Virus record (IMG/VR): IMGVR_UViG_3300026522_000616
Reading direction: 5' to 3' (one strand)
Source of the DNA: an uncultured virus (IMG/VR IMGVR_UViG_3300026522_000616)
Taxonomy: Duplodnaviria; Heunggongvirae; Uroviricota; Caudoviricetes
DNA length: 55,473 nt
The notes beneath the pieces were generated by a model. That model was not told the origin of the DNA. It ran no database searches and saw only the letters and a program-made list of their open reading frames with translations. Positions 3,273 through 25,800 of the stretch are shown in pieces (the stretch's first letter is position 1; every line of letters begins with the position of its first letter). A program made the position numbers and the translations under genes.

Positions 3273-3359
3273 GGCGGATTGGCGAAATTGGCAAACGTAG
3301 CAGACTCAAAATCTGCCGATAGAAATATCTTTTCGGTTCAAGTCCGAAATCCGCTACCA
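3273..3359 (+). tRNA. tRNA-Leu(CAA)
   Basis: Cloverleaf, long variable arm, loop CTCAAAA, CCA end. Confidence 0.95.
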
Positions 3360-3387
3360 AGAATATAATTTCATAATTATATATATT

Positions 3388-3470
3388 TAGACACAGCCAG
3401 CAATCTTTGAATTTAAAAAATGATGATTTTTAAATTTTAATATGGTAACATATTAATCTATGTGTCTAGT
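3388..3470 (+). ncRNA. CAGCAA-stem RNA motif copy 2
   Basis: TAGACACA-GC-CAGCAATC...TGTGTCTAGT; directly upstream of tRNA-Lys. Confidence 0.6.
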
Positions 3471-3474
3471 AAAT

Positions 3475-3550
3475 GAATCTGTAGCTCAGTTGGTAGAGCA
3501 CCTGACTTTTAATCAGGGTGTCGTGGGTTCAAATCCCACCAGGTTCACCA
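3475..3550 (+). tRNA. tRNA-Lys(TTT)
   Basis: Cloverleaf, loop CTTTTAA, CCA. Confidence 0.96.
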
Positions 3551-3562
3551 TTTGAAATTGGT

Positions 3563-3592
3563 AAGACTTCATATTTATGAAGTCTTTTTTTA
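3563..3592 (+). terminator. intrinsic terminator
   Basis: AAGACTTCAT/ATGAAGTCTT hairpin plus T run. Confidence 0.85.
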
Positions 3593-3600
3593 TTGGAAGA

Positions 3601-3670
3601 GAATACCCCCACTTCTAAGCTACGAGGTAGCCGTTAGGCTATCCGAGTAGCGAAAGTTGGGGATGACCAA
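3601..3670 (+). mobile_element. IS200/IS605-family right-end remnant
   Basis: GAATACCCCCACTT...AAGTTGGGGATGACCAA resembles the GAA-CCC-hairpin-GGG-GTCAA end of tnpB elements. Confidence 0.5.
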
Positions 3671-3835
3671 TATTAACTCTTGACTATTTTCACAAATAGT
3701 GATACAATTAAATCAAAATAGGTGAAATAAAATGCTAATGGCAATATAATTGCAAAGTAGTAAAGATAGATATTCTATTACATTTTAATATTTTTGATGT
3801 AACTCAAGTATAAAAAGAAAAGGAGATAGATAAAA

Positions 3836-4174
3836 ATGGAAGTTCAATATAAGGCTGAGTTTGACTGTAAGCTGGTCAATAGTTCTTATGGAGTTAAGAT
3901 GTTTATAAATGGTGTTTATATCGGTTGTCAAAATTCTACAGATAATAGAATGAAAGAGCTTATTAATAGTGAGTTAGAAAAACACAAAATTCCTAAACAT
4001 GAACCTAAATCCATGACAGAATCACGTAAGCGTAAGATTGAGAAAAATAAACAAATGTTAGAGCATAGTAAAAAAGTAAGAGATTCCTTAAATAAATATT
4101 ATACTGGTGAAAGAACTTATACTTATTTGGGTAAGGGTGAGAACTTCCCATTAGATTATGAGCCTATTGTATGA
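3836..4174 (+). CDS. hypothetical protein
   Basis: AAGGAG RBS. Confidence 0.75.
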   Translation: MEVQYKAEFDCKLVNSSYGVKMFINGVYIGCQNSTDNRMKELINSELEKHKIPKHEPKSMTESRKRKIEKNKQMLEHSKKVRDSLNKYYTGERTYTYLGKGENFPLDYEPIV

Positions 4175-4195
4175 TAAACAAAAGGAGATAGAAAA

Positions 4196-4456
4196 ATGTA
4201 TAGAGCAGAAACTTGGGCATGGCATTGTCCGTTGGAGGAGAATACATATATTAAATGTGGTCAAACGAATAAGATGGAACAAGTCGCGGAGATATTCAAT
4301 AAAAAACTAAATGAAGAGTTTACTGTTGAATGTGGAGGTAGACGCTATAAGGCATACTTTGAAAAAAGCGGAATTAGAGTCCATGCTATGTATTATGATT
4401 TGTGGGACAGTGTTCTTATTGGGCTACTTACAGGGGAAGCGACGATTGTTGGTTAA
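4196..4456 (+). CDS. hypothetical protein
   Basis: AAGGAG RBS. Confidence 0.75.
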   Translation: MYRAETWAWHCPLEENTYIKCGQTNKMEQVAEIFNKKLNEEFTVECGGRRYKAYFEKSGIRVHAMYYDLWDSVLIGLLTGEATIVG

Positions 4457-4482
4457 ATAAAAGTACAAAAGGAGTTAATTTT

Positions 4483-4962
4483 ATGGCTAAATATAACTGT
4501 GTAACTCGTTCTTCTTATTTTTATGTAGTCGATGAGTTTGAATATGAAAAATTTAAGCAACATATTGTTGTTGGAGATAATGACGAGAGAATAGAGTTTT
4601 GGCATAAAATTGCAGATAAGGCTGAAAGTGACGAAGTATACACTGGTAAAAATATGAAACATGCTTTTGGTGGTTATACACAAATATTAGGGTATGTAGA
4701 GGACATTGAGCATTATGATAGCAAGTTATTTTATCCAACTCCAAACTATAAGCTATTTTTAGAAAAGTTATCTAAAATTATTGCACCTAATTCTGCTTGT
4801 ATTATTACAGAAGTAGGTAATAATGCATTGCGGTATCTTGGAGCAGAGGTTAGTATCGTAACACATAATAATTATGAGACACTTGTACTTGATGAAATTA
4901 TTAAGAACAGATTATCAAATAAAAAAGGAATTACATATAGTGATATTGATATGTGGTTTTAA
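4483..4962 (+). CDS. hypothetical protein
   Basis: Start moved to the ATG after AAGGAG. Confidence 0.75.
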   Translation: MAKYNCVTRSSYFYVVDEFEYEKFKQHIVVGDNDERIEFWHKIADKAESDEVYTGKNMKHAFGGYTQILGYVEDIEHYDSKLFYPTPNYKLFLEKLSKIIAPNSACIITEVGNNALRYLGAEVSIVTHNNYETLVLDEIIKNRLSNKKGITYSDIDMWF

Positions 4963-5096
4963 TAAGGTGGAGACTATAAAAGACAAAAAACACTTATTTA
5001 TAATAGAGTTGACTTGACTAGACATTTGAGATATAAAATTATGAATTATATAAATATTGCAATTAGTATTATTAGAAATAAGAACGGGGTGTAATA

Positions 5097-5315
5097 ATGG
5101 AAGTACGTGTAATTTTTATGGATGCAACTGCTGAAAAAGTATTCAAAAACGTAGACAATATCTATACAAAAGGTGGTCTACTCGTTATTAGAGAAGGAGA
5201 TTGGCTTTACAAGTATCCCTTGGAGCATATATTCTCTATCGTGCATAAACACGGAGCACATTGGGGAAGCAACGCATGGAAGAAGAAAGAATTTACAAAG
5301 CAAAAAGACGCTTGA
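5097..5315 (+). CDS. hypothetical protein
   Basis: GGGGTG RBS. Confidence 0.65.
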   Translation: MEVRVIFMDATAEKVFKNVDNIYTKGGLLVIREGDWLYKYPLEHIFSIVHKHGAHWGSNAWKKKEFTKQKDA

Positions 5316-5436
5316 AAGGCGTGCTATATAGAGGATTTATTATGAAAACGACAAAAAAAACTGCTGCCCATATTGTGGCAGCAAAGACATCACCATCGAT
5401 GTAGATGTTACAGTTGGCACTCGTTTTGAGAACAGT

Positions 5437-6435
5437 ATGCTTATTCTTGAAAGGAGAAGAAGAATGAATACAGTTGAAAAGTTAAAGAAAATCTACGATG
5501 AATTAGATAGTGTAGTTGTCAAAGAATGTCATTCAACTGATTATTCAATTAATGGGTGTAGGGTTTGCCCATATTACTCTCACAATGAATGCGACTTTGA
5601 GAAAACTGAAATAAATATTAATCACTTGATTTATGTCTCAGAGAAGCTAGAAGTACAGAGAAAAAAGAGAATAGCTAAAAAATATAAAAAAACCATCTAT
5701 GTAACAGAAGAGGATTGCAGAACGTTGCTTCATCATTCTCCGACAGCATATTTACATCCTGGAAGCGTAAAAAGTATTTGCGCGACATTTGATAACGGGT
5801 ATGAGGTCGTTATCGGTTTTACACCGACATTTGAGTTAGAAGATGATTTCACATTTAGTTTATTCGGTAAAAATGACGAATTCATCAAGACAGAATACTA
5901 TGAGCATTTTCAAGAGACATGGAGGGTTACTGACCCCAATACTTGTGATGAGTATGAATTAACTCTGATTAGAAGCGATAAGCCTAGGCTGTCAGGAGAA
6001 GCACATATTCGCCGACAAGAAAAAGTATCCAATAATGACAAAATGCCAGAGAAACACGAACAGGAGAATAAGCCAAGCAAAATCATTCACGATTTGACGA
6101 TAACAGTAGACGAAGAAACCCTTAAAGATTGGAGAAATCCAACAGGGTTTATGGATGGAGGATATAAGGCTGTGTGGGGAGAATTTGACAATTATCTCAC
6201 CGTTAGGGTAAAACCATCTATGACGTTGGAAGGTGATGGTTTCATCGAAGTTTGCTTGTATAAGGATGGTAAGGAAGTTGCATCAACGTATCCATACTTC
6301 TTGTTTGACCCGATACGCCTTGAATATAATAATGAAGAATATCATATTCAGCTAGAAAAAGAATATAAAGAAAAAAGACCAGAGTTGAGATACACGGAGG
6401 ATTTATTTTTGAAAGAAGATGAAAGCAATGGCTAA
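5437..6435 (+). CDS. hypothetical protein (true start probably 5464)
   Basis: Long ORF, Cys-rich N-terminus, two similar internal domains. Confidence 0.75.
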   Translation: MLILERRRRMNTVEKLKKIYDELDSVVVKECHSTDYSINGCRVCPYYSHNECDFEKTEININHLIYVSEKLEVQRKKRIAKKYKKTIYVTEEDCRTLLHHSPTAYLHPGSVKSICATFDNGYEVVIGFTPTFELEDDFTFSLFGKNDEFIKTEYYEHFQETWRVTDPNTCDEYELTLIRSDKPRLSGEAHIRRQEKVSNNDKMPEKHEQENKPSKIIHDLTITVDEETLKDWRNPTGFMDGGYKAVWGEFDNYLTVRVKPSMTLEGDGFIEVCLYKDGKEVASTYPYFLFDPIRLEYNNEEYHIQLEKEYKEKRPELRYTEDLFLKEDESNG

Positions 6436-6617
6436 TTATTGCTATGCAGTTTGTTTTTCGTATTTCTATTTCACAGATGAGAAAAATACAAAGAACTTAT
6501 GGAGCACATCATTACTCGTGTGAATCTTCTATTGCCGGGACGTAAAAGAAGATTTAGAAAACGTAGAAAAGGGGAGCACTTCTGATACTCACAAAAATTA
6601 AAGATACTATCAATAAA

Positions 6618-6884
6618 ATGTACTGCTTTTTCTTTGACCATGAATTACTAGATAAATTAATCATTGCATATAGTATTGATGTTGGATATATGTATGCTAC
6701 AATCAGCATATATAAAGTCTCGAAATGTAGAAGATGCGGAAAGACTTTTTGCAAAAAAATTGATTCATATGATAAGTTCGGTTGGTATTCTCAGTATCTT
6801 GCAGATGAAGAAGAGAAAATTCTTCGAAAAAGAGGAATCGTATCAATCGCTGAAGCATATCAAAAAGTAGAGAAAAAAGATTAA
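6618..6884 (+). CDS. hypothetical CxxC protein
   Basis: KCRRCGK motif. Confidence 0.55.
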   Translation: MYCFFFDHELLDKLIIAYSIDVGYMYATISIYKVSKCRRCGKTFCKKIDSYDKFGWYSQYLADEEEKILRKRGIVSIAEAYQKVEKKD

Positions 6885-6931
6885 CTCATACTGGGAGACT
6901 AAAAAGGACTGCTAGTAAAAGAGGTGAGAAT

Positions 6932-7390
6932 ATGTATCTGGCAGAAGCGAAAGCTAAAAAACTTGAGCCTATCAAACAATGTCTTAAAATGTATACGAAC
7001 TATCAGATTGAATCAATTAATGATGGTTTTATCATCGTATTTCCATATAGATATTGGCTTGACGGCGATGGTATGTCGATAGTTCTTCTCCTTGAAGATG
7101 ATATGGATACGCTTATCTTACAAGACGATGATTTCTGTATCCATAATTCTATCTGTTTAATTCCAGAAGAAAGAAATAATGTACTCGCCATGGCGAAAAA
7201 ATGTAGGCTCGATTGTTTTTATGATAATGATGAACATGCGACACCAGAATTCCGCGCAAAAATCTCGCCACTTTCTTTTTGCCTTAATAGCAACATAGAA
7301 AGGCTAATTGATAAGATTGAAGAGTTCCTGAATAAACTTATCGTATTCAACTGGAAAGCATACGAGGAAATGGATATAAGGCATTCATAG
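6932..7390 (+). CDS. hypothetical protein (DUF1828-like)
   Basis: FPYRYWLDGDGMSI..ILQDD pattern; GAGGTG RBS. Confidence 0.6.
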   Translation: MYLAEAKAKKLEPIKQCLKMYTNYQIESINDGFIIVFPYRYWLDGDGMSIVLLLEDDMDTLILQDDDFCIHNSICLIPEERNNVLAMAKKCRLDCFYDNDEHATPEFRAKISPLSFCLNSNIERLIDKIEEFLNKLIVFNWKAYEEMDIRHS

Positions 7391-7392
7391 AC

Positions 7393-7439
7393 AGGTGCGG
7401 CGGAGACTCGTGACTTCAGTCATGAGAGGAGCCACACCT
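7393..7439. mobile_element. IS200/IS605-family end hairpin remnant
   Basis: AGGTGCGGC..CTCGTGACTTCAGTCATGAG..GCCACACCT nested palindrome. Confidence 0.6.
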
Positions 7440-7535
7440 TCCACCTCCTTTTGATAAAAAATATAGAGTTTCAGCAAAAAATTACTATAATAATTTTGAT
7501 GAAGATAAAGAAAGTTTATGGTATATGATGTTAGT

Positions 7536-7676
7536 ACTACGTTGTTTATGTTATCTTACCCTAGAATGATACCCTAGTTCTAGGCTCTAAGTAGGTTCTG
7601 TAAACAGCTCTGATAGGTAGGAACAGTTAACCTAGTGTGGTCGAATACGACAAGCATTTGTAACTTTAGCGAAAGG
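7536..7676 (+). ncRNA. orphan IscB omega-RNA (HEARO-like) scaffold fragment
   Basis: CTACGTT...CCTAGAATGATACCCTAGTTCTAGGCTCT...TAAACAG...AAGC...AACTTTAGCGAAAGG; no iscB ORF follows. Confidence 0.65.
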
Positions 7677-7729
7677 AGGAAATATGTTATCTGATATTGA
7701 CAAATGAGATTAAATGTGATAATATATAA

Positions 7730-7900
7730 GTATGAAATGCAGGAAGTATTTCATACAAGTAAAGACACTTTCAGCAATCATTTATTGATTATTGATAGGA
7801 AATCATAATGTGTCTTGTGTTTGAATTTCTGATTTCTTGGCAGTTCTCCTTTAACAAAAGTACGATAATATGGTGATTAAATTATCGTGCTTTTTGTTTT
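7730..7900 (+). ncRNA. sRNA containing CAGCAA-stem motif copy 3 (7762-7818)
   Basis: TTGACA at 7697; AAGACAC-TTT-CAGCAATC...TGTGTCTTGT; anti-SD TTCTCCTTT at 7844; terminator 7856-7900; no ORF. Confidence 0.6.
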
Positions 7901-7935
7901 GAGGAAATGAATCCATAGAAAGAAGGTATAAAAGA

Positions 7936-8100
7936 ATGATTAAAGAAACTGATATTAAGCCAAAAGTTCATAAAGATTATAATGAACAGGTTTTTGTTTC
8001 TTTAAAAGAGGTACAATTTGCAAAACGAGCAGTTGATGTAATCCTTTGTGTTTGTGCAATTGCTTGTGCTATGGCGATTTTGGTGTATTACCATATGTAA
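7936..8100 (+). CDS. small membrane protein (54 aa)
   Basis: AGAAGG RBS, hydrophobic C-terminus. Confidence 0.5.
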   Translation: MIKETDIKPKVHKDYNEQVFVSLKEVQFAKRAVDVILCVCAIACAMAILVYYHM

Positions 8101-8114
8101 AAATTTTATCGAAA

Positions 8115-8411
8115 GCGCCGTAAAACCCCGCCCTTTAGGGCTGGGGATATAAGGCGCGAGAACTAAATTAAGTATTGACAAGCACCAACTTTTGTATTAT
8201 AATATAAACAAAATAACAAACAGTAGCTTAAACAATATAAAAACTGTACCGTAGGGCTTACGGAATCAGTATAAAACTAAGCCTATGGAGATTGCGTAAG
8301 ACATAAAAATATATAGTATAACTATCATAACTATATATCATGTGATTAAATCACATGATGCTGCGGTCAATGAATTAGGAATTCCCTGCCTTTAGGCATG
8401 GGGAGTGTCAA
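8115..8411 (+). mobile_element. non-autonomous IS200/IS605 mini-element: left-end hairpin, promoter and TnpB omega-RNA
   Basis: CCCCGCCCTTTAGGGCTGGGG hairpin; TTGACA-17-TATAAT 8175-8203; GTACCGTAGGGCTTACGGAA..GCCTATGGAG..GAATTCCCTGCCTTTAGGCATGGGGAGTGTCAA. Confidence 0.75.
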
Positions 8412-8468
8412 ATACCTGTTATATTAAACATATGTTTATTTTATATAATAGGTGTAAGAAAGAAATAT

Positions 8469-8546
8469 GGCGCAGTAGCACAGTTGGATTAGTGCATAGA
8501 CCTTCTAAGTCTACGGTCGTGAGTTCGAGTCTCACCTGTGTCACCA
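8469..8546 (+). tRNA. tRNA-Arg(TCT)
   Basis: Loop CTTCTAA, CCA. Confidence 0.95.
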
Positions 8547-8745
8547 TTTAGATTTTTTATGTATTTAAAAAATTTTGTGCTTGACAAATGATTGGATACA
8601 TGATACAATAAATGAGTAAGGTTGATAAAGATATTTTACTTCTTAAAAAAAATAAATCAAGAAAGCACTTGACAGATAGCGATTGATTTGATATAATAAA
8701 GAAGTAAGGTTGAGATAAATCTTACAAAAGAGAAAATCAAATAAT

Positions 8746-8832
8746 GCGAGTGTGGCGGAATCGGCAGACGCATGGAACTTAAAATCCTAGGGTGGCAATA
8801 CCGTGAGGGTTCAATTCTCTCCATTCGCGCCA
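8746..8832 (+). tRNA. tRNA-Leu(TAA) copy 1 (mismatch in anticodon stem)
   Basis: Loop CTTAAAA; stem TGGAA/TCCTA imperfect. Confidence 0.8.
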
Positions 8833-8859
8833 AATTATTATTTTTCTTGGGGGGATTTA

Positions 8860-9099
8860 ATGAGAAATTATCCAGTAGACTCAATCCATTTATCAATCGA
8901 AGAGGTTATTCCATTTAATAATGACAGGCATTCTGGAATTATTTTTAAATGGTCCAGCGATATTGGATTTGGAGAGTATACAATATATAAAAATAAAGAT
9001 GGTTGGTTTGCTGACTCAGAAACCATGGATTCTAATAACGACAAAAGTTTTGTAAAAGAACTAATGAATCTTTGGATAAAAGATGTTTGTGTTATATAA
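8860..9099 (+). CDS. hypothetical protein between duplicated tRNA-Leu genes
   Basis: GGGGGA RBS, ATG at 8860. Confidence 0.7.
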   Translation: MRNYPVDSIHLSIEEVIPFNNDRHSGIIFKWSSDIGFGEYTIYKNKDGWFADSETMDSNNDKSFVKELMNLWIKDVCVI

Positions 9100-9151
9100 T
9101 CTTTGTTTTCAAGAGCATCATTCATTTTAAATATACTTAGCTTTGTATAGT

Positions 9152-9238
9152 GCGAGTGTGACGGAATTGGCAGACGTATGGGACTTAAAATCCCAGGGTA
9201 GTAATACCGTGAGGGTTCGACCCCCTCCATTCGCACCA
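9152..9238 (+). tRNA. tRNA-Leu(TAA) copy 2
   Basis: Perfect anticodon stem TGGGA/TCCCA, CCA. Confidence 0.95.
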
Positions 9239-9242
9239 TTAT

Positions 9243-9319
9243 GTTGGTTGTGGCGAAATGGTTAACGCGCTAGATTGTGGCTCTAGTTATTGCAGGTTCA
9301 AATCCTGTCAACCACCCCA
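9243..9319 (+). tRNA. tRNA-His(GTG)
   Basis: Loop TTGTGGC, G-1, C discriminator, CCA. Confidence 0.92.
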
Positions 9320-9320
9320 A

Positions 9321-9394
9321 GATAACTTATATATCAGTACCTTTACGTGGTAGTTATCATAAGTATCTGAAAAAGAGAAACTAAAACTGATATA
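9321..9394 (+). ncRNA. HDV-like theta ribozyme
   Basis: P1 GATAACT/AGTTATC, P2 ATATCAGT/ACTGATAT, P3 ACC/GGT with L3 TTTACGT, J4/2 CTAA. Confidence 0.85.
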
Positions 9395-9405
9395 AGACAA
9401 TTAAA

Positions 9406-9945
9406 ATGGGTAATGGAATTATGTATAAGATTAATGAAAAATATCCAAATTATAAAATATACGATAATGGAATTATCACAGATTTAAATGATAAACTATT
9501 AAAGGTATTTACTAGTGGTAAGGGATATTTATATGTCAATTTTTATGTAAATAAAAAGACAAAAATTGTTTTTATACATAGACTTGTTGCTTATATGTTT
9601 TGTAAAGGATATAAAGAAGGATTACAAGTAAATCATATCAATGGAATAAAAACTGATAATAGAGCTTGTAATTTGGAATGGGTTACTGCGAAAGAAAATA
9701 TGCAACATAGTGTTAGTACATTAAGAAATTTTATTGGCAGTAAAAATCCTATTGCAAAAAAGATTGATGTATATAATTATAAAACAGGAAACCTTGTAGC
9801 ACATTATGATTGTATAGCTACTATGATAAGAGATTTTTTATGTAAGAATTTAGGGGTTTGTTATCATAGTGCAGAACAAAGTGTATATAGAATTTTAAAA
9901 GGTGTACGAAAATCTTATTATGGATATACATTTAAATATGTATAA
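9406..9945 (+). CDS. free-standing HNH homing endonuclease
   Basis: IHRLVA...VNHINGIKTDNRACNLEWVT. Confidence 0.92.
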   Translation: MGNGIMYKINEKYPNYKIYDNGIITDLNDKLLKVFTSGKGYLYVNFYVNKKTKIVFIHRLVAYMFCKGYKEGLQVNHINGIKTDNRACNLEWVTAKENMQHSVSTLRNFIGSKNPIAKKIDVYNYKTGNLVAHYDCIATMIRDFLCKNLGVCYHSAEQSVYRILKGVRKSYYGYTFKYV

Positions 9946-9975
9946 TATGTTGATAATATAAAATTTATTATAAAT

Positions 9976-10052
9976 CCGCCCGAAGCTCAATTGGTTGAAG
10001 CAAGCGTCTTATACACGATAGGTTCTGGGTTCAAGTCCCAGGGGGCGGACCA
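9976..10052 (+). tRNA. tRNA-Ile(TAT)
   Basis: Loop CTTATAC, A discriminator, CCA. Confidence 0.85.
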
Positions 10053-10121
10053 TTATCATCAAAATAAGGTGAAAATCTTATAATGATGAAAAATTTATAA
10101 ATGATTAAAAATCATTTATCT

Positions 10122-10197
10122 GGCTCCTTAGTCAAGTTGGTTAAGACAACAGGTTTTCATCCTGTCATCGTCGGTTCGAGCCCGGCAGGAGTCACCA
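10122..10197 (+). tRNA. tRNA-Glu(TTC)
   Basis: Loop TTTTCAT, CCA. Confidence 0.93.
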
Positions 10198-10270
10198 GTT
10201 ATCCTATTATCAATACCTTTACGGGGTGGATAACATAAGTACCTGATATAAGGGAAACTAAAATTGATAA
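10198..10270 (+). ncRNA. HDV-like theta ribozyme
   Basis: P1 GTTATCC/GGATAAC starts right after CCA; P2 TTATCAAT/ATTGATAA; J4/2 CTAA. Confidence 0.88.
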
Positions 10271-10281
10271 AACTAAAATAT

Positions 10282-10368
10282 GGGCAGGTGTCCGAGTGGC
10301 TAAAGGAGCCAGACTGTAAATCTGGTGGCTTTATGTCTACGTTGGTTCAAATCCAACTCTGCCCACCA
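10282..10368 (+). tRNA. tRNA-Tyr(GTA)
   Basis: Loop CTGTAAA, long variable arm, CCA. Confidence 0.96.
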
Positions 10369-10369
10369 T

Positions 10370-10445
10370 TCACCAGCAGTCCAGTCGGGGGGACAAATGA
10401 CTATTAATCATTGGGTCGTAGGTTCGACTCCTACCTGGTGAGCCA
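10370..10445 (+). tRNA. tRNA-Asn(ATT), unusual A34
   Basis: Acceptor TCACCAG/CTGGTGA, G discriminator, loop CTATTAA, CCA; position 8 is C. Confidence 0.8.
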
Positions 10446-10447
10446 TA

Positions 10448-10521
10448 TGCAGGATATTGTAAAGGTAACATGGAAGTCTCATAAACTTTCGTTAGTAGTT
10501 CGAGTCTACTTCCTGCACCCA
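10448..10521 (+). tRNA. tRNA-Met/Ile2(CAT)
   Basis: Loop CTCATAA, CCA. Confidence 0.85.
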
Positions 10522-10525
10522 TAAT

Positions 10526-10598
10526 GCGGTATTGGTTTAATGGTAAAACATCATCCTTCCAAGTTGAAATTGTGAGTTCGATTCTCACATACCGCTCC
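10526..10598 (+). tRNA. tRNA-Gly(TCC)
   Basis: Loop CTTCCAA; ends in CC followed by the ribozyme G. Confidence 0.92.
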
Positions 10599-10676
10599 GT
10601 CAATCTATTATTAGTACCTTTTCGTGGTGATTGACATAAGTACCTAACATAAAATTAGGGAAACAAAAACTAATAA
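10599..10676 (+). ncRNA. HDV-like theta ribozyme
   Basis: P1 GTCAATC/GATTGAC, P2 TTATTAGT/ACTAATAA, P4 CCTAA/TTAGG, J4/2 CAAA. Confidence 0.85.
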
Positions 10677-10728
10677 AATCCTTGACAAACATTGTATTAA
10701 GTGGTACAATATAATTGTTAAAGGAAAT

Positions 10729-10805
10729 GGTGGTATAGCCAAGTGGATTAAGGCGACGGTCTGCAAAACCGTTATTCCACAGTTCAAATCTGTGTACCAC
10801 CTCCA
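10729..10805 (+). tRNA. tRNA-Cys(GCA)
   Basis: Loop CTGCAAA, CCA; promoter at 10682. Confidence 0.95.
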
Positions 10806-10813
10806 ATTAAATT

Positions 10814-10888
10814 AGGGGTATAGCTCAATGGCGAGAGCGGTCGGCTTTGACCCGACATATCTTAGTTCAATTCTAAGTACCCCCGCCA
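10814..10888 (+). tRNA. tRNA-Gln(TTG)
   Basis: Loop CTTTGAC, 1:72 mismatch, CCA. Confidence 0.9.
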
Positions 10889-10889
10889 T

Positions 10890-10964
10890 GCTGACGTGGC
10901 GCAAAGGTAGCGCAATTCATTTGTAATGAATCGGTTGTAGGTTCAAGTCCTACCGTTAGCTCCA
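10890..10964 (+). tRNA. tRNA-Thr(TGT)
   Basis: Loop TTTGTAA, CCA. Confidence 0.95.
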
Positions 10965-11037: not shown

Positions 11038-11180
11038 TTATTATTTTGGTTTAATATTTTATTCTTCAATGTGAGACGAGTGGCAAGGTACACCTCGCGC
11101 AAGGTGGTTTAGCGAGAGCTAACGCAAGTCCGAATCTTGCCATTGTTTAAAAAGGTAAAATATTTTATTAAGATAATAAT
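11038..11180 (+). ncRNA. tRNA-like RNA on an extended stem
   Basis: D-like, CACCT/AGGTG, TTAGC/GCTAA and GCAAG-TCCGAAT-CTTGC arms closed by CAATG/CATTG; no CCA. Confidence 0.55.
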
Positions 11181-11184
11181 ATAA

Positions 11185-11220
11185 ATAACCTCAGTTTGGC
11201 GATGACTGAGGTTATTTTAT
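11185..11220 (+). terminator. intrinsic terminator ending the tRNA operon
   Basis: AATAACCTCAGT/ACTGAGGTTATT. Confidence 0.85.
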
Positions 11221-11266
11221 AAAATAATTATTTGACAAATACAAAGAATTGTTGTATAATATATAT

Positions 11267-11525
11267 AGAAATCAAGAAGATAGAATTTTTTGTAGAAGAT
11301 TTATCGGTCCATGTATTTCTTGTTTAACAGAACACGTTATATTAAAAATGTGTCGATACGTAACAAGTGGTTTTCAGATATGTTTTTATAATGCATGACA
11401 AATTCTATAAACGAGAAATGATAAATCTTTATGCTAGATACGAAAGATTTTATTGTATTGGTTTTATTTACAAAAACTACATAATGAAAGAGACAAGGTT
11501 TGATGTAGTTCCTTGTCTCTTTTGT
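11267..11525 (+). ncRNA. putative ~255 nt structured sRNA
   Basis: TTGACA-17-TATAAT 11232-11260, long-range helices, terminator AAAGAGACAAGG/CCTTGTCTCTTT, no ORF. Confidence 0.55.
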
Positions 11526-11528
11526 TAT

Positions 11529-11573
11529 ATGTAATTATCATTTATGTAATTATCATTTATGTAATTATCATTT
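11529..11573. repeat. 15-bp tandem repeat x3 (ATGTAATTATCATTT)
   Basis: Three exact copies running into the -35 TTGACA of the next promoter. Confidence 0.9.
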
Positions 11574-11624
11574 GACATTTTAACCAATAGCATCTTATAA
11601 TAAAAATAAAGGAGTTGAAGTATA

Positions 11625-12322: not shown

Positions 12323-13411
12323 TTGCATAAACTTTTTAAATTAAATTTGGATAATTATCAAAAACAACAAATTAAGAATATGCTTTTAGATAATTCGCAA
12401 TTATATCATGAAGCATATCTATGGAAACAAAGTCATAAAGAGCCTTTTCAAACGTCTGTAAGGTACTTAGATTTTGTTCCTGAACGATTGCATAAAGAAT
12501 GTGCCATAAGAACGATTAAACGAGCTACAAAGGCAGATAAAGAGGTTAAATACAGGTATCGTAATATCTATATCAATCCAAATAGGTTTACGAATAATCA
12601 GATTGAATTAAATAATTTAATTATTCCATTTGATATTGATACTAACAAAATAAATATTTTGTCTGCATGGATTATGTACAAAAATAAGGAATATTATTTA
12701 GACTTGGAGATTGGCAAATCAGGAAAACATCATATGATTGCTATAGATGTTGGGGTAGATAATTTGGGAGCTTGTGTGACAAGTTTCGGAGATTCGTTTT
12801 TAGTCGATGGTAAAAAATTAAAAGCATATGATTATTATTGTTTAAAGAAAATTAATTTTTTACAAGGAATTAATTCTGAATCCAAAAAGATTGATAAAAT
12901 AAAGCACAATCATTATCATTATTTGAGAACATATTGTGAAAAAGCATCAAATATTGTAAAACAATACTGTATTGATAACGGTATAGATTTTATTTTGATG
13001 GGTAAAATTCCAACAAAAAAATCATTGTCATATCATACATTTATGGGAATGGATTATAAAAGAGACAATATTACTGCATTTGGTATGTCTTTGTTTGTAA
13101 AAAACATTAAGCATATTTGCAAAGTAAATAAATGGGAGTATTCTTGTATTGCAGAAGATTATAGTTCACAATGCTCTTTTTATGATGATGAAAGTGTAAA
13201 GCAAAGAGATAAACACTTTGGTAGGCGCGTACATCGTGGATTATATCGAACAAAAGATAATAATTATGTAAATGCAGATATTAATGCTGCTTATAATTTT
13301 TTCCGAAAATATGTAGATAACATTGATAATAAGAAAAAGAAAATTATTCAATGGAAAAATTGCAAGCAAAATTTAAAATTGCATACACGTAGAGTAAGAG
13401 TTATTGATTAA
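12323..13411 (+). CDS. tnpB: TnpB-family RuvC nuclease, stand-alone
   Basis: IAIDVGVDNL, AEDYSSQCSFYD, GRRVHRGLYRT, NADINAAYN; no tnpA nearby. Confidence 0.85.
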   Translation: MHKLFKLNLDNYQKQQIKNMLLDNSQLYHEAYLWKQSHKEPFQTSVRYLDFVPERLHKECAIRTIKRATKADKEVKYRYRNIYINPNRFTNNQIELNNLIIPFDIDTNKINILSAWIMYKNKEYYLDLEIGKSGKHHMIAIDVGVDNLGACVTSFGDSFLVDGKKLKAYDYYCLKKINFLQGINSESKKIDKIKHNHYHYLRTYCEKASNIVKQYCIDNGIDFILMGKIPTKKSLSYHTFMGMDYKRDNITAFGMSLFVKNIKHICKVNKWEYSCIAEDYSSQCSFYDDESVKQRDKHFGRRVHRGLYRTKDNNYVNADINAAYNFFRKYVDNIDNKKKKIIQWKNCKQNLKLHTRRVRVID

Positions 13412-13462
13412 AAATACAAGAAAATGATTGACAAAACCGTTTAATCTATGTTATAATAGAGA

Positions 13463-13945
13463 AGTGGGTGAGAAACCCAGATAAGTGCCTGTATTCACTT
13501 AGGGAATTTATGCAAACGGTGAATATTAGTATGAAGGGAATAAACGAGAATAAGAAATCCCTAAAGAATTAAAGTTTTTATATTTTGATAATTTATAGAT
13601 AGTCTAAACACAAAAGACTATTCATCAATAAAAAGAGTTTCCCTATCTTTTTAGTTCTTGCCAAAGGACGGTATTTATAGATAGCGATATATAAATACGT
13701 TGATGAAACAGTAAGGATTGGCGTTTTTACTGTTAAACGATAATGTCAGAATACGTTTTGGATTATTATAGGATATAAAAACATTCTTTTAAACAGTTCT
13801 TGTTCCAATGTGTAAAAGAACTTTTCAAGGTGCTTGACGCAGTATGCGGGATACAAATAAAATAAAACATACAAAAGGTTCTTTTGTGGATAACGAATTA
13901 TCAAAGTACTTGTATAAGTATATAACTTTTATTTCTCCTTTCATA
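13463..13945 (+). ncRNA. large ornate ncRNA (core 13483-13835)
   Basis: Own promoter 13428-13457; eight or more helices including pseudoknots; no credible ORF. Confidence 0.65.
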
Positions 13946-14002
13946 AAAGTTTTGGTAATTGTTATCCATTTTTCTATATATATTGGAAAGAAGGTTTGTA
14001 AT

Positions 14003-14176
14003 ATGAATTGGTTGGTAATTTTAGTATTAATGTGGCTAATTATTTTTTGGTTAATTGTTGGCTTTGGATGGTATTTCTGCGGGTTTATGCAAATGGTAAT
14101 ATATGTATTGGCATATATGTTTATTACATTTGGAGTTTTCCTATTATCTTTACAAGGTGTTAATGATGAAAATTAA
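14003..14176 (+). CDS. small two-TM membrane protein
   Basis: AGAAGG RBS; two hydrophobic segments. Confidence 0.55.
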   Translation: MNWLVILVLMWLIIFWLIVGFGWYFCGFMQMVIYVLAYMFITFGVFLLSLQGVNDEN

Positions 14177-14382
14177 AGAAATGCACATTGTATTTGAAAA
14201 CTTTGAAATATTAAAAATTCCATATCAATATGTTGGTCAAATGAGATTAGACTATATTACAGATAGTATTATTTCTAATGGGGATATGGTTATTAGGATA
14301 AACAAAAATCATTGACAAATTAATTTATATATGATAAACTGTAAATAGTTGGATGGTTATTGTATGTAAGGAGAGGTAATCA

Positions 14383-14742
14383 ATGAAAAGCAGAGTTATT
14401 AATACGAAAAATTTTGAGTGGAATAAAGAAAATAAACAGTTCATTGGCTATACGAGTAAATTGAAACCGAGTCTTTTTTATGGCAATAAAGAAAGAGAAG
14501 GGTATATTTGGTTGCAGAGTCAATGGACAAATAAAATGTCTAAATGGATTCTTCAAAACGAAACAATGAAAGATAATCAGATTGAGAAATGGGAATTTGT
14601 TCCTGATAATAAATTTGTGGAAAAGTTTTCTAATTTAAAAGATTATACTCTTATTGTAAATTTTGATTCTCATTATAAATTCGGTAAAGCAGCAAAACAA
14701 CGTAATGATGAACTAAATAGAAAAAGAAAGATGAATAAGTAA
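14383..14742 (+). CDS. hypothetical protein
   Basis: Promoter plus AGGAGAGG RBS. Confidence 0.75.
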   Translation: MKSRVINTKNFEWNKENKQFIGYTSKLKPSLFYGNKEREGYIWLQSQWTNKMSKWILQNETMKDNQIEKWEFVPDNKFVEKFSNLKDYTLIVNFDSHYKFGKAAKQRNDELNRKRKMNK

Positions 14743-14815
14743 CATCTAATATTTTTTATGTATGCTTCTATTCTTTAATTAGATAACACATTGTAAAAAA
14801 GGCAGGTTGTATAAT

Positions 14816-15520
14816 ATGAATAAAAGGCGTTATTTGATTGCAGAAGGTCAATCTGAATATACATATGATGAACTTAGTAAAACTTCAAAAGAGCAAGCAG
14901 TCAATGAAGTAGCGGAAATTCTAAACGAAATGAATGCAGAAGATTTGGTTACTATAGATTTAAATGCTATTACTGTTGATTTGAAAAAAGCAGGTATTCC
15001 TGACGAGAATTTTGAAGTACATATGGGTGAAGATAATCCATTTGATTTTTCTGTTGATATTAAGGATTTTGTATTGGATAGTACAAATCCATTATTTATG
15101 AAAGCAGTTAATGAAGCAGGAATTGATTTAACAGAATTTATTTCTTTTGATAATGAGCGTACTCATAATTCTTTTGAAACAAAAGAACAATCAAAACATT
15201 TAGATGAAAGTAATGCATTAGATTGTTTTGAAAAAGATGGAGTTAAATTTAAGATTAGTGGATTAGTACAAGACTATAAAACCAATATTAAAGTATCTGA
15301 TGTTACAGAATATCAAGATGAAAAAATACATACATTCAATCTAAGAGAACTTGTTGAACAACTTTCTGAAGGGTTAGCTAGTGTATTGGATGAAATTGTT
15401 CTTCACTATGTTGAAAGTTCAGACCAAGAACTTATGGATATGGATTCTGAAGGATATGAACAAGCACAACAAGAAGTTAATGATTATAAATTTGATGTAA
15501 ATGGACATATTGTTCATTAA
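14816..15520 (+). CDS. acidic protein with MNKRRYLIA leader
   Basis: ORF followed by a terminator. Confidence 0.8.
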   Translation: MNKRRYLIAEGQSEYTYDELSKTSKEQAVNEVAEILNEMNAEDLVTIDLNAITVDLKKAGIPDENFEVHMGEDNPFDFSVDIKDFVLDSTNPLFMKAVNEAGIDLTEFISFDNERTHNSFETKEQSKHLDESNALDCFEKDGVKFKISGLVQDYKTNIKVSDVTEYQDEKIHTFNLRELVEQLSEGLASVLDEIVLHYVESSDQELMDMDSEGYEQAQQEVNDYKFDVNGHIVH

Positions 15521-15600
15521 AATTATTTATTAAAAATGCTAAGTGAATATAATTTCACTTAGCATTTTTTCTATACTATATATGAAAATTTAGTATAAGA

Positions 15601-15849
15601 ATGGAGATAAATAATTTTATGGATAATGGTTTTATGCAGTTGAAAGATTGGGAAGATTATCAGTCATTTAATGTAAATAACAAAAAAATGTTAAGAAAAA
15701 TATTGATGGATATGCAAAATTTAATATCGAATCAACAGATGAAAATTTTAAAATTGGAAGATAGAATCAACCGTTTGGAAATAGAAAAACGAAATCTATC
15801 TATAGATATACATCATTTGTATAAACGTATAAACGGAGAAACAATATGA
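15601..15849 (+). CDS. hypothetical coiled-coil protein
   Basis: ORF. Confidence 0.55.
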   Translation: MEINNFMDNGFMQLKDWEDYQSFNVNNKKMLRKILMDMQNLISNQQMKILKLEDRINRLEIEKRNLSIDIHHLYKRINGETI

Positions 15850-22809: not shown

Positions 22810-25800
22810 GTGAATCACTTGCAAAAAGTAAGAAAACGTAATGGAAAAGTTGTTGACTACGATTCGCATAAGATATTTAATGCGATTAAGAAAGCTAACA
22901 ATGATTCCAAAGATAAGAGAATGAATAATTCGATTATTTGGGGGATGGTAAGTCAGATTGAAGAAAAATTTGAAGATGTAAAAGCACCTTCAGTAGAAAG
23001 TATTCAAGACGAAGTGGAAAATGTTCTCATGAAGTCAAATTGGGAACATACTGCTAAATCGTATATTATTTATCGTTCGGAACACGCAAAAATTCGTGAT
23101 ACACATGAAGAACTTATGAAAAAAATGATGGATATTACATTTCAATCTGGTGAAGAATCAGATTACAAACGTAGTAATGCTAATATTCAATCAGATGAAC
23201 CAATGGGTTCAATGTTAATTTATGGGACAACAGTAAGTAATTTCTTTAATGATAATTACATTATTCCGAAGAGATATATTGATGCTCATAGAGCAGGATA
23301 TATTCATATCCATGAATCTTATTGTGGATAAAAAAATAGGTGAACTGATAAAATATCAGGTGTACAATTTACGTATAGGAAATGTAGGAAATGACATTTA
23401 GAAATTGTGCTAACAGGGAATGACTTTATATAAGTAGAATCCTGTGCTAACATTTACATTTTTTGTAAATTAAGTTAATCGACTATCCATTTATGGAGTA
23501 CATATATGTTAAAAATATGTGGAAGTGCCTATCTTAGATGATATAGTCAATCTGCAATAGACAACTGTCTACTGTGAGAGGACAAGGATTTTTCAGAGCT
23601 AACATTCAACTGCCTCCAGGTGGATTTACAAAAGACATTTAAAGACGGTTTTAAAATTGGTAGCTCATATATTAGAGAACCGCAAAGTATTCGTTCTGCT
23701 GCAAGTTTAGCTTGCATCGTGTTGCAATCTTCGCAGAATAACATGTTTGGTGGACAATCAATTCAGGACTTTGATAGAGCTATGGCAGAAGGTGTAAGAC
23801 GTTCTTTTAAGAAAGAATTTGAGGAATGTGCTAAAAACCTTGCTATGGTTTCTGATGTATCAGAAGATACTGTAGACGAGATTTTGAAACAAAAACAGAA
23901 CGAATATCCAACGTATAAAAATGATAAAAACATTGATAAACTAACAGATGATAAAGAATTAAATAAGCTATTTAAAAATGCTTATAAGCTGGCTTGTAAG
24001 CGTGTAGAAGAAGAAACACATCAAGCTATGGAAAGCGTTATTTTCAATCTAAATTCGATGCATTGTTTACCATATTCTTCAACAATTTTTGTTTATGATA
24101 AACAAGAAGAAGAATTAAAAGTAATGCAAATTGGTAAACTACATGAGATTTATGAAAAAGGTCGTTATCAGGCTATTTCATTAAATCAAAATACAGGTGT
24201 AGCAGAATTAAAAGATATTACTGATATTGAAAGAAAAAATAATCATCGTAGATTGATTACAATTCATACAACATCAGGAGCATCAGTTACGACAACAGAC
24301 AATCATAAAGTAATGTATCTTAATAACGCAGGTAAAATTGCTGAAGATTATCCTGAAAGTGTACCAAATGTATTAATGCCAAGAAATTTTGTTTTTAATG
24401 TGAAAAATGATATTAGTTTAGATAAATTCCATTCACGTACAAAACAAAATTATACAGAAAATCATATTGTAGTAAATCCTTCTTTTGGTAAATTGGCAGG
24501 GTATTATGTTGCAGAAGGTTCTATTGTTGGTGATAGTCAATTATGCTTTACCACTTGTGATGAAACTAAAGAACAAGAATTGTTATCATTAATGAAAGAA
24601 TGCTATAATGAAAAAGTAACATATAATAAATATTCTATGCCTAATGGTAAACCAAAGGATATAAGATTTAATGTTGGTAAAGTTTGGTCGGACGCATTTA
24701 AATATTATTTCGGTAGAAATGCACATGAGAAAAAAATTCCAATGCAAATTATGTTTGGAACAAAAGAAGTTCAATCTGCATTTTTGGAAGGGTATTTTAA
24801 ATGTGATGGTAGTATAAAACCAACATATATTGGGGCTACAACTGTTTCAGAAACGTTACGTTCTCAAATTCAATTAATGATTTTGTCAATGAATGAAATG
24901 TCTCATATTCACAATACATATAACAGGAAAACGTCTTATGGAACATATAATGGATATGATATTAGTTTTAATTCTAATACTGCAAATCGTTTGAATTTGA
25001 AAGATTTAAATCAAAATAATGTACGAGCAGAATATATTTATTATGATTTTGATTTTTTGAAGAATTTATTAAGTCGTAATATTGATGGTAGGAAACCAAA
25101 ATTTAATCGTGTAAAAAAAGAAATTATTGACACAAAAGCAATTGATGATAATAAATTCATTCCTGCTTCACATATATATCCATTATTTATTGAAAAAGTA
25201 ACGGAAAGTAATAGTGAAGAAGAATATGTTTATGATATGTCTGTTGCAGACAATGAGACTTTCTTAACATCTAATTGTATTTTTGTTCATAATTCGAGAG
25301 CTGGCTCTCAAGTGCCATTTAGTTCCTTAAATTTTGGGTTAGATACGTCTGAAGAAGGACGTTTAGCTATGAAGCATTTACTGCTTGCACAAGAAGCAGG
25401 ATTAGGACATGGCGAGACGAGCATCTTCCCTAGATAAATGGGGCTTACTTTAATCAGTAAGAAACATATTGTGAAAACGGTAGAAGTTTTAATCGACTTC
25501 GTAAGAGAACCTAAATCCTAAATGGATAGTGGTAATACCGTGTTAAGACTTATTAATGCTAAAATAAAATATAATGGAGGTGAGAAAATGAATAAAATAT
25601 TTAAAACGAATACAGGATTAGAATATAAAATTAATTATGATTATATAAAAAATGGTAATCATTATTATGAAATTGAATTTCTAAGAACACATAGCAAACG
25701 AACTGTTTTGAAGCAAGCATTGAATCAAGGTTGTATTAAAGATTTATTCTATCCAACATTATATGGGATTGGATATATGGGAAATGCAACATCAAAAATG

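Follow-up and report, generated by a model that had tools for sequence, protein, structure and literature searches.

The genome of an uncultured Caudoviricetes virus (IMG/VR record IMGVR_UViG_3300026522_000616) contains a conserved, non-coding structured RNA of approximately 510-540 nucleotides (nt), of which the nested three-domain fold is kept in two homologues. The RNA is encoded on the + strand of the stretch of 55,473 nt that was analyzed here (the window), between an open reading frame (ORF) for a TnpB-like protein of 362 amino acids (12323-13411) and a small ORF that starts at 14003. That this structured RNA is real is considered highly probable. It is known from one lineage, in three sequences, and its function is inferred; the reading that is tentatively preferred, although it falls a little short of being the probable one, is that the RNA acts in cis as a long, structured leader for an early operon.

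The window comes from a phage record of 281,186 bases with an estimated completeness of 98%, and has a G+C content of 28%. It contains 15 tRNA genes at 3273-10964, an island that ends 2.5 kb upstream of the RNA. Public runs in which the stretch occurs are gut metagenomes of cattle and sheep; in 20 of the 24 runs listed, at least half of the sampled words are present (6 RNA libraries; 14 studies).

Fold and conservation of the RNA

Relatives were found by a metagenome scan with a peptide motif from the upstream TnpB-like protein, which returned the phage's own record and two other contigs. One of these, L004, measures 6.3 kb and is approximately 89-92% identical to the window over the RNA region. 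The other, L003, forms the end of a contig of 95.9 kb and shows 67.5% identity over 13523-14273. The three phages have a common gene order, i.e., a DUF7004 gene, the TnpB-like gene, a consensus promoter, the RNA, a small membrane ORF and further ORFs. In blastn the RNA matched none of 50,697 phage records, and scans of viral contigs with protein patterns and RNA motifs yielded chance or unrelated matches only (for the RNA motifs, 80 of the 106 stretches from one motif scan were fetched and, separately, two loci were checked). At L116, a viral-contig locus from another motif scan, the only shared sequence is the searched motif of 24 nt. A scan of bacterial and archaeal genome contigs gave two chance matches, in Bacteroides and Phocaeicola. 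As the scans elsewhere gave nothing, the comparative evidence rests on three sequences, two of which are close, and the RNA is known from one phage lineage. Among the papers listed in a literature search confined to TnpB together with jumbo phages, none concerns such an RNA to judge by title or abstract.

The RNA and the elements directly around it are organized as follows:

13428..13457, + strand: promoter P1, with TTGACA, an 18-nt spacer, TATAAT and a TG before the -10 hexamer; 12 of 12 consensus positions; inferred start at approximately 13464
13464..13562, + strand: 5′ domain, with a terminal hairpin, a second helix and an invariant hairpin, found in independent minimum free energy (MFE) folds of the window and L003
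13563..13789, + strand: central domain of 227 nt, with a long closing stem and a multi-helix junction; same arrangement in L003
13790..13833, + strand: linker, highly conserved and mostly unpaired, with ATTCTTTTAAACA.TTCTTGT.CCA...GTAAAAGAA as invariant columns in alignment A4 (see below); just upstream of P2
13834..13863, + strand: internal promoter-like site P2, with TTGACG, an 18-nt spacer and TAAAAT; 10 of 12 consensus positions; start predicted at approximately 13870
13886..13975, + strand: 3′ hairpin domain, with stem 13886-905/13951-69 carrying hairpin 13925-32/13943-50
13984..14176, + strand: ribosome-binding site (GGAAAGAAGG at 13984-93) and first operon ORF, with the ATG at 14003, encoding a hydrophobic protein of 57 amino acids

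There is a real folding signal in this region and it belongs to the + strand. On this strand, 13463-13945 has an MFE of -112.8 kcal/mol, compared to -87.7 ± 5.3 for dinucleotide shuffles, none of which folds as well (z -4.74; 0 of 100). On the - strand the corresponding values are -87.8 and -73.3 ± 5.6 (z -2.58; 1 of 100 as good). The central 227 nt (13563-13789) folded alone on the + strand reach -56.3, against -33.9 ± 4.2 in shuffles (z -5.33; 0 of 200 as good), and the central domain of L003, also folded alone, shows the same arrangement with a z-score of -4.39. Independent folding of the window and L003, each between the inferred start and the start codon, gave the same architecture for both.

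Two alignments were used to follow the base pairs across the homologues. Alignment A4 is a raw MAFFT alignment of window positions 13523-14010 with their homologues, scored with the window MFE structure (160 pairs, 477 cells). In this alignment 86.0% of the 477 cells are paired, and 13 of the 160 pairs are changed on both sides, compared to 5.1 ± 1.7 in shuffles, none of which reaches 13 (0 of 500). In slid controls, in which the partners were moved by 1-3 columns, 1-7 pairs are changed on both sides. The covariation score amounts to 0.185, against 0.137 ± 0.013 in shuffles (0 of 500). Several L003 hairpins are misaligned in A4 and the counts are therefore conservative. The consensus energy calculated by RNAalifold is -78.1, compared to -38.1 ± 4.4 in 120 column shuffles that keep the gap and conservation classes (z -9.1; best shuffle -53.5); for the reverse complement it is -47.3. 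The second alignment, of the window with L003 (68% identity), is structure-annotated and was scored on the base and on the predicted pairing state of each sequence. It leans toward the predicted structures, yet both structures were predicted separately. The fate of the window pairs in this alignment is given below:

Window pairs that also pair in L003: 120 of 179 (slid controls 63-86)
Unchanged pairs: 80 (slid controls 28-41)
Pairs changed on one side: 17 (slid controls 7-11)
Pairs changed on both sides: 23 (slid controls 3-6)
Broken pairs: 35 (slid controls 69-95)
Pairs falling on gaps: 24 (slid controls 19-24)
Pairs also present in the MFE structure of L003 itself: 84 (slid controls 0-23)

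The 5′ domain begins with a terminal hairpin (13465-69/13475-79) that is retained with differing sequence in all three phages. It is followed by helix 13491-99/13518-26, the loop of which carries an extra branched insertion of approximately 90 nt in L003, and by an invariant hairpin, AGGGA/UCCCU (13535-39/13558-62), with an A-rich loop. The central domain is closed by a long, interrupted stem (13563-69/13783-89, 13574-85/13771-82 and 13586-95/13759-68), and contains seven further helices around two junctions. The central junction bears 13599-605/13615-21, 13622-29/13699-706, 13707-18/13723-34 and 13735-39/13754-58; the second of these helices in turn bears the hairpins 13630-36/13646-52, 13654-59/13664-69 and 13671-79/13690-98. 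Double-sided changes are seen in the closing stem as well as in hairpins, and the hairpin at 13735-58 combines a conserved loop with a variable stem.

Beyond the central domain lies the linker, the conservation of which may act at the RNA level or at the DNA level, and helix 13815-24/13875-84, which brackets P2. In the 3′ domain the stems vary, with double-sided changes in three pairs of the apical stem and two pairs of the basal stem, and the apical loop UUCUCCUUUC (13933-42) is invariant. This loop is complementary to the AAAGGAG type of Shine–Dalgarno sequence of the phage, as found, e.g., at 11608-14. A U-run follows the 3′ hairpin in all three sequences (13970-74 in the window) and is predicted, in the folds of all three, to pair with the first ORF's purine-rich ribosome-binding site. 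The multistem junctions comprise the two of the central domain and a further one in the 3′ hairpin, which is limited to the window and L004. Insertions and deletions lie in loops or swap whole hairpins. Some elements of the window MFE structure are not retained in L003, i.e., the long-range pairs 13793-801/13991-99 and 13803-14/13977-88 and the small helices 13485-88/13529-32 and 13825-29/13833-37.

A preliminary description, made from the sequence alone, had proposed a large pseudoknotted non-coding RNA at 13463-13945. The large structured RNA is borne out by the fold statistics, by a fold that is kept in two homologues with compensatory changes, and by RNA contigs that start at the promoter. 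All nine complementarities that had been listed are indeed present (8/8, 7/7, 7/7, 10/10, 15/18, 7/7, 7/7, 9/9 and 8/8 pairs, in the order of listing), but comparison with the 67%-identical L003 supports six of them and leaves three unsupported. Helix 13492-98/13519-25 retains 7 of 7 pairs in L003, three of them changed on both sides, and 13574-92/13765-82, 13599-605/13615-21, 13622-28/13700-06 and 13671-79/13690-98 are supported as well. For 13707-14/13727-34 the hairpin is retained in a different register. The three others fare less well. Of the eight pairs in the helix that was thought to close the structure, 13483-90/13828-35, only four remain. In the crossing helix 13564-73/13650-59 seven of ten pairs remain, and this helix competes with the invariant 13563-69/13783-89 and the covarying 13654-59/13664-69. 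The pairing of a loop at 13499-505 with 13558-64 keeps 6 of 7 and is doubtful, as it competes with the invariant local hairpin 13535-39/13558-62. Because the crossing helices are those that fail in the homologue, the term pseudoknotted is not supported: no conserved pseudoknot was found and the supported fold is nested. The proposed 3′ limit at 13945 cuts a conserved hairpin in half and should be moved to approximately 13975 or to the start codon at 14003.

The region offers little to a protein-coding interpretation. No + strand ORF of at least 40 amino acids occurs in 13412-13843, and the gaps in A4 are 1, 2, 4, 11 and 12 nt long. On the opposite strand, ORFs at 13746-13904 in the window and at 1536-1733 in L003 were considered and rejected, as they overlap only partially and are not conserved; likewise, an antisense frame of 39 codons from the conserved loop stops after six codons in L003.

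Transcription of the RNA and the downstream operon

Both promoter elements of the region recur in the relatives. P1 has a counterpart that matches 12 of 12 consensus positions at the homologous place in L003 (with a 17-nt spacer) and in L004. Counterparts of P2 lie at the same place as well, with the -10 hexamer TAGAAT (10 of 12) in L004 and TATAAT (11 of 12) in L003. The -35 hexamer of P2 and the T, A,., A, A, T of its -10 hexamer are invariant columns in A4, and the flanks vary. The putative transcript from P2, which would start at approximately 13870 if the site is active, would carry the 3′ hairpin alone as its leader (fold z-score -3.60).

Data on transcription come from four metatranscriptome runs in the form of assembled contigs, which cannot show transcript ends, strand or local abundance. 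The binned depth climbs from 0.3-3.5 (13208-13391) over 7.6-31 (13392-13575) to 23-134 (13576-13759). Two unbroken RNA contigs, 13458-14950 (X16) and 13488-14986 (X6), connect the RNA to the ORFs. The contigs of the two remaining runs span 13554-14226 or 14227; their ends probably reflect strain differences and were given no weight. In all four runs, the contig depth of the RNA is like that of 14828-15830 (122.5/115.9, 55.1/52.2, 61.5/82.3 and 23.4/22) and like that of the contig at 14828-15502, and the contig depth of the TnpB-like gene, 1-13, is approximately 10-fold below that of the RNA and operon. These values fit, and hint at, one transcription unit from approximately 13464 to approximately 15.5-15.8 kb. 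No canonical terminator was called between the RNA and the first ORF in the window, L003 or L004; neighbouring units end in clear terminators.

The first ORF of the operon is conserved, with 59 amino acids and 53% identity in L003 and 74% identity in L004. The next ORF overlaps it, and the operon continues to approximately 15520. Nothing usable came from searches of the downstream proteins against Pfam, NCBIfam, PHROGs and the ESM Atlas. The second operon ORF encodes 148 amino acids in L003 (757-1203) and L004 (4903-5349), and the window version (14165-14320) is an in-frame internal deletion variant of approximately 50 amino acids; approximately 257 nt that are present in the second-ORF region of L004 are missing from the window.

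Three points were absent from the preliminary description, i.e., the continuation of the transcript into ORFs, the TnpB-like nature of the upstream gene, and the second conserved promoter inside the element.

Possible functions of the RNA

Two points favour the cis-acting leader: the transcript extends into the operon without a change in depth, and its 3′ end can gate the first ribosome-binding site. In this model, the host RNA polymerase would start at P1, a sigma70-type promoter (13428-13457), and produce a transcript that begins with a hairpin. No efficient termination would follow, and the polymerase would read into a small early operon that encodes the 57-amino-acid membrane protein and then three ORFs, up to approximately 15.5 kb. 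The RNA would thus serve as the long 5′ leader of the operon and act in cis. Its 5′ hairpin and compact domains would stabilize the message, while the 3′ hairpin, the U-run and the pairing with the ribosome-binding site would form a gate for read-through and for translation of the first ORF. A putative factor that sets this gate could use the central junction domain of 227 nt, which has conserved loops, as its platform. From the weaker P2 would come a transcript with a short leader, without the 5′ and central domains, so that the operon could be expressed with or without that part of the leader.

Several points weigh against this model. The operon has its own conserved promoter-like site, P2, inside the element. 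To judge from its position, part of the strong conservation in 13790-13863 may be due to a promoter or operator at the DNA level. A discrete, processed RNA with mRNA-like turnover would give an identical contig picture. Pairing of the UUCUCCUUUC loop to the ribosome-binding site of the operon itself is weak (-4.6 to -7.8 kcal/mol). The analysis yielded no ligand, protein or signal, and the downstream proteins have no recognizable family. Finally, the comparison comprises only three sequences, two of them 92% alike, too few for a test of R-scape grade.

The main rival, which is possible but doubtful, is a stand-alone, trans-acting large phage non-coding RNA of a new class, with a lifestyle like that of ROOL and GOLLD. 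Such an RNA would be made early from its own promoter, and would possibly be processed from a longer transcript. It may act through its conserved loops, i.e., by a CU-rich loop on ribosome-binding sites, by protein binding or by self-assembly. This reading gains from P2: as the operon has its own internal promoter, the 400 nt of RNA upstream are not needed merely for operon expression and may have a separate job. It also gains from the loop at 13933-42 with its complementarity to AAAGGAG-type sites of the phage such as 11608-14, and from the long stem and U-run (13970-74), which could be a leaky terminator. On the other hand, the depth of the RNA equals that of the downstream ORFs in 4 of 4 runs, contigs bridge both, no canonical terminator was called in the three sequences, and the RNA is found in one phage lineage only.

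The comparison with known large RNAs bears on the same question. ROOL is described as averaging 581 nt, as discovered in rumen data from cows, as lying near tRNAs and occurring in phages, and as having six junctions and three pseudoknots (PMC5737381). GOLLD is described from phages and prophages, near tRNA genes, with many members above 800 nt, and both RNAs are said to combine stems that vary with loops that are conserved, and to assemble into cages made of RNA alone (10.1101/2024.12.08.627333). The phage RNA resembles ROOL in being large, with many helices and variable stems and conserved loops, the pattern described for both classes (10.1101/2024.12.08.627333), and in occurring in a rumen phage near a tRNA island, 2.5 kb past its 15 tRNA genes, as is the case for ROOL (PMC5737381). 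The phage or prophage context near tRNA genes that characterizes ROOL and GOLLD is found here too, in a 281-kb virus record. However, unlike ROOL with its six junctions and three pseudoknots (PMC5737381), the phage RNA shows approximately 2-3 multistem junctions without a pseudoknot that is supported, is apparently transcribed together with protein genes and has a promoter-like site within it. Compared to GOLLD, with which it shares a large size and the location near tRNA genes in a phage or prophage, it is smaller and gives no match to the model.

The whole window, searched with 4227 Rfam models at gathering thresholds, gave 14 tRNA matches only and no strong match to the RNA, so that the RNA belongs to no curated family; group I and group II introns, tmRNA, RNase P, OLE and HEARO were among the Rfam families without a match. 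A permissive Rfam scan of 13300-14100 gave three - strand matches with E-values of 1.1-5.7, far below thresholds, and no riboswitch, T-box or leader; the same scan of L003 gave five chance matches. In the 281-kb genome, the ROOL model (RF03087; 574 positions, gathering threshold 99.1 bits) yielded four candidates, none with an E-value of 10 or lower, in a search in which the control genomes also gave no match and thus provided no positive control. The GOLLD model (RF02032; 416 positions, gathering threshold 150 bits) scored 40 candidates in this genome, again none with an E-value of 10 or lower. The context of rumen, tRNA genes and phage thus matches ROOL, but there is no agreement in model, size or junction number. 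The preliminary description had left the choice between ROOL or GOLLD and a new class, and the latter is the better half of that alternative. A further comparison is the raiA motif, a large structured RNA upstream of protein genes on the same strand, for which a cis-regulatory role is described as plausible but unproven (PMC5737381). The phage RNA has the same kind of position but no Rfam match, is phage-encoded and is known from a single lineage.

An alternative that involves the upstream gene is that the RNA is the partner of the adjacent TnpB-like protein, as an oversized omega-RNA-like scaffold or guide-bearing RNA made from its own promoter. The protein and the rates of evolution in the block are as follows:

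12323..13411, + strand: TnpB-like ORF of 362 amino acids, matching Pfam PF01385 OrfB_IS605 (E-value 8.6e-9), with the stop codon 16 nt before the -35 hexamer of P1
DUF7004 gene: amino acid identity of 82% between the window and L003
119-amino-acid ORF: amino acid identity of 83% between the window and L003
TnpB-like protein: amino acid identity of 56% between the window and L003
Membrane ORF: amino acid identity of 53% between the window and L003
148-amino-acid ORF: amino acid identity of 56% between L003 and L004

In alignments with relatives (A1 and A5) the TnpB-like protein retains the RuvC residues D142, E278 and D319, and it has no CxxC zinc finger. The gene is single-copy in the 281-kb genome. 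Its closest relatives are metagenome proteins that are 99%, 54% (P0003) and 35% (P0004) identical, and a PDB sequence search with a profile of the TnpB-like protein gave no matches. The gene has a promoter of its own that matches 12 of 12 consensus positions (12129-57), followed by a terminator-like hairpin and T-run (12236-61 plus tail) before the start at 12323.

As the RuvC triad is retained, a guide RNA should be needed by this protein, and no other structured RNA is found at the 3′ end of its gene. The distance between the gene and the RNA promoter is 11-16 nt in all three phages, and the invariant single-stranded segment 13790-13814 lies directly behind the closed central domain, at the place expected for a guide. 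In addition, between the window and L003, the protein (56% amino acid identity) and the RNA (nt identity of 68%) have diverged more rapidly than the flanking genes (82-83% amino acid identity). This rate is not specific to the pair, however: the membrane ORF and the 148-amino-acid ORF evolve equally fast, and the RNA therefore sits in a fast-evolving block rather than in a special pair with the nuclease gene. Nor does synteny in three close relatives say anything about association, and since all three carry the TnpB-like gene, a transposon end cannot be defined.

The TnpB reRNA is described as an RNA of approximately 150 nt that overlaps the 3′ end of tnpB and ends in approximately 16 nt of flanking DNA (PMC8612924). 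Like the reRNA or omega RNA of IS200/IS605 elements, the phage RNA is structured and encoded immediately 3′ of a TnpB-family gene. Unlike these, it starts past the stop codon at its own consensus promoter (contigs from 13458 and 13488), is approximately 510-540 nt long, i.e., 3-4 times longer than known reRNA, and runs on into ORFs. The TnpB-like gene's 3′ end is not conserved at the nucleotide level, as 13318-13522 remains unaligned with L003 in blastn. No hypervariable guide-like segment is found between the 92%-identical pair, and the second matches of the RNA in the phage genome stay within chance (43 of at least 13 nt, the longest of 17 nt; in 30 shuffles a mean of 28.8 matches, with the longest of 14-18 nt). 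A partnership with the TnpB-like protein is thus unlikely. Still a shade less likely is the specific version in which the RNA is a dedicated subunit of this zinc-finger-less protein, a phage-domesticated, promoter-driven giant guide or scaffold, of which 13790-13814 directs the protein to P2; if true, this would amount to RNA-guided control of the early operon.

It is very unlikely that the region has no RNA function at all, with its conservation due to DNA signals (two promoters, operator-like inverted repeats and an upstream region) in an AT-rich spacer and its folding incidental. The strongest conservation, approximately 13790-13863, does fall on a promoter-like site and the region upstream of it, P2 is flanked by an inverted repeat (helix 13815-24/13875-84), and A/T palindromes are common at 28% G+C. 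The fold z-scores, however, were obtained with dinucleotide-preserving shuffles, and there is a strand asymmetry (-78.1 compared to -47.3 for the reverse complement; z -4.74 compared to -2.58). Moreover, the 23 double-changed pairs are spread over many short central-domain hairpins, where no + strand promoter-like signal is present, and the insertions and deletions lie in loops or replace whole hairpins. Hardly credible is a leader peptide of 13 codons (13531-13572), encoded in the highly conserved block 13523-13573 and controlling the fold through its translation: all three phages have the frame open, with the same TAA end, and GGTGA lies 8 nt upstream in the window, but the L003 start is a GTG without a purine-rich site upstream, all four codon differences are non-synonymous, the last eight codons are nucleotide-invariant, which fits a constraint on RNA rather than on peptide, and the stretch forms the invariant hairpin 13535-39/13558-62.

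Other features of the window and significance of the RNA

Besides the RNA described above, the window contains two smaller candidate RNAs. The first (11232-11527) consists of a TTGACA-17-TATAAT promoter (11232-11260), an ORF-poor unit of approximately 260 nt and a terminator stem (11490-98/11511-19) followed by TTTTGTT. Its RNA contig depth is 107, 466, 1665 and 5010 in the four runs, compared to 1-20 for the neighbouring genes. It is 85.6% identical in L003, gave no Rfam match, and looks like a very abundant small RNA just past the tRNA island. The second, at 11066-11222, is a G+C-rich island in AT-rich DNA with a closing stem (GGCAAG/CTTGCC) and two inner hairpins, one of which has a GAGA loop. 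It is followed by a terminator-like hairpin (11188-11222), gave no credible Rfam match, and is a candidate for a second small structured RNA, directly after the last tRNA.

At 11528-11577, the 15-mer TATGTAATTATCATT is repeated in tandem as three exact copies, which extend into the -35 hexamer (TTGACA, 11572-77) of the promoter of the DUF7004 gene; these repeats may be an operator or an upstream element. Several homing-endonuclease genes occur in the window, including those of a split nrdD. This gene for anaerobic ribonucleotide reductase (22810-28565) is distributed over three ORFs, the middle one of which has an intein with a LAGLIDADG domain, and between nrdD pieces there is an ORF for an HNH/NUMOD4 endonuclease (26975-27523). 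This arrangement suggests introns, although no intron model reached the Rfam threshold in the window scan. Within the tRNA island, ARAGORN called a tRNA-Asn with anticodon ATT (10370-10445) and a tRNA-Ile with anticodon TAT (9976-10052), both of which are unusual anticodons.

Few large RNAs with a complex fold are known in bacteria and phages, and ROOL and GOLLD are two phage-linked classes among them. The RNA of this rumen giant phage, which is unrelated to ROOL and GOLLD by model, widens this set with an example that has transcript support, a defined promoter and a testable fold. Its position, after a compact TnpB-like gene and before a fast-evolving early operon, makes it a candidate for a new long regulatory leader or for an RNA-protein machine.

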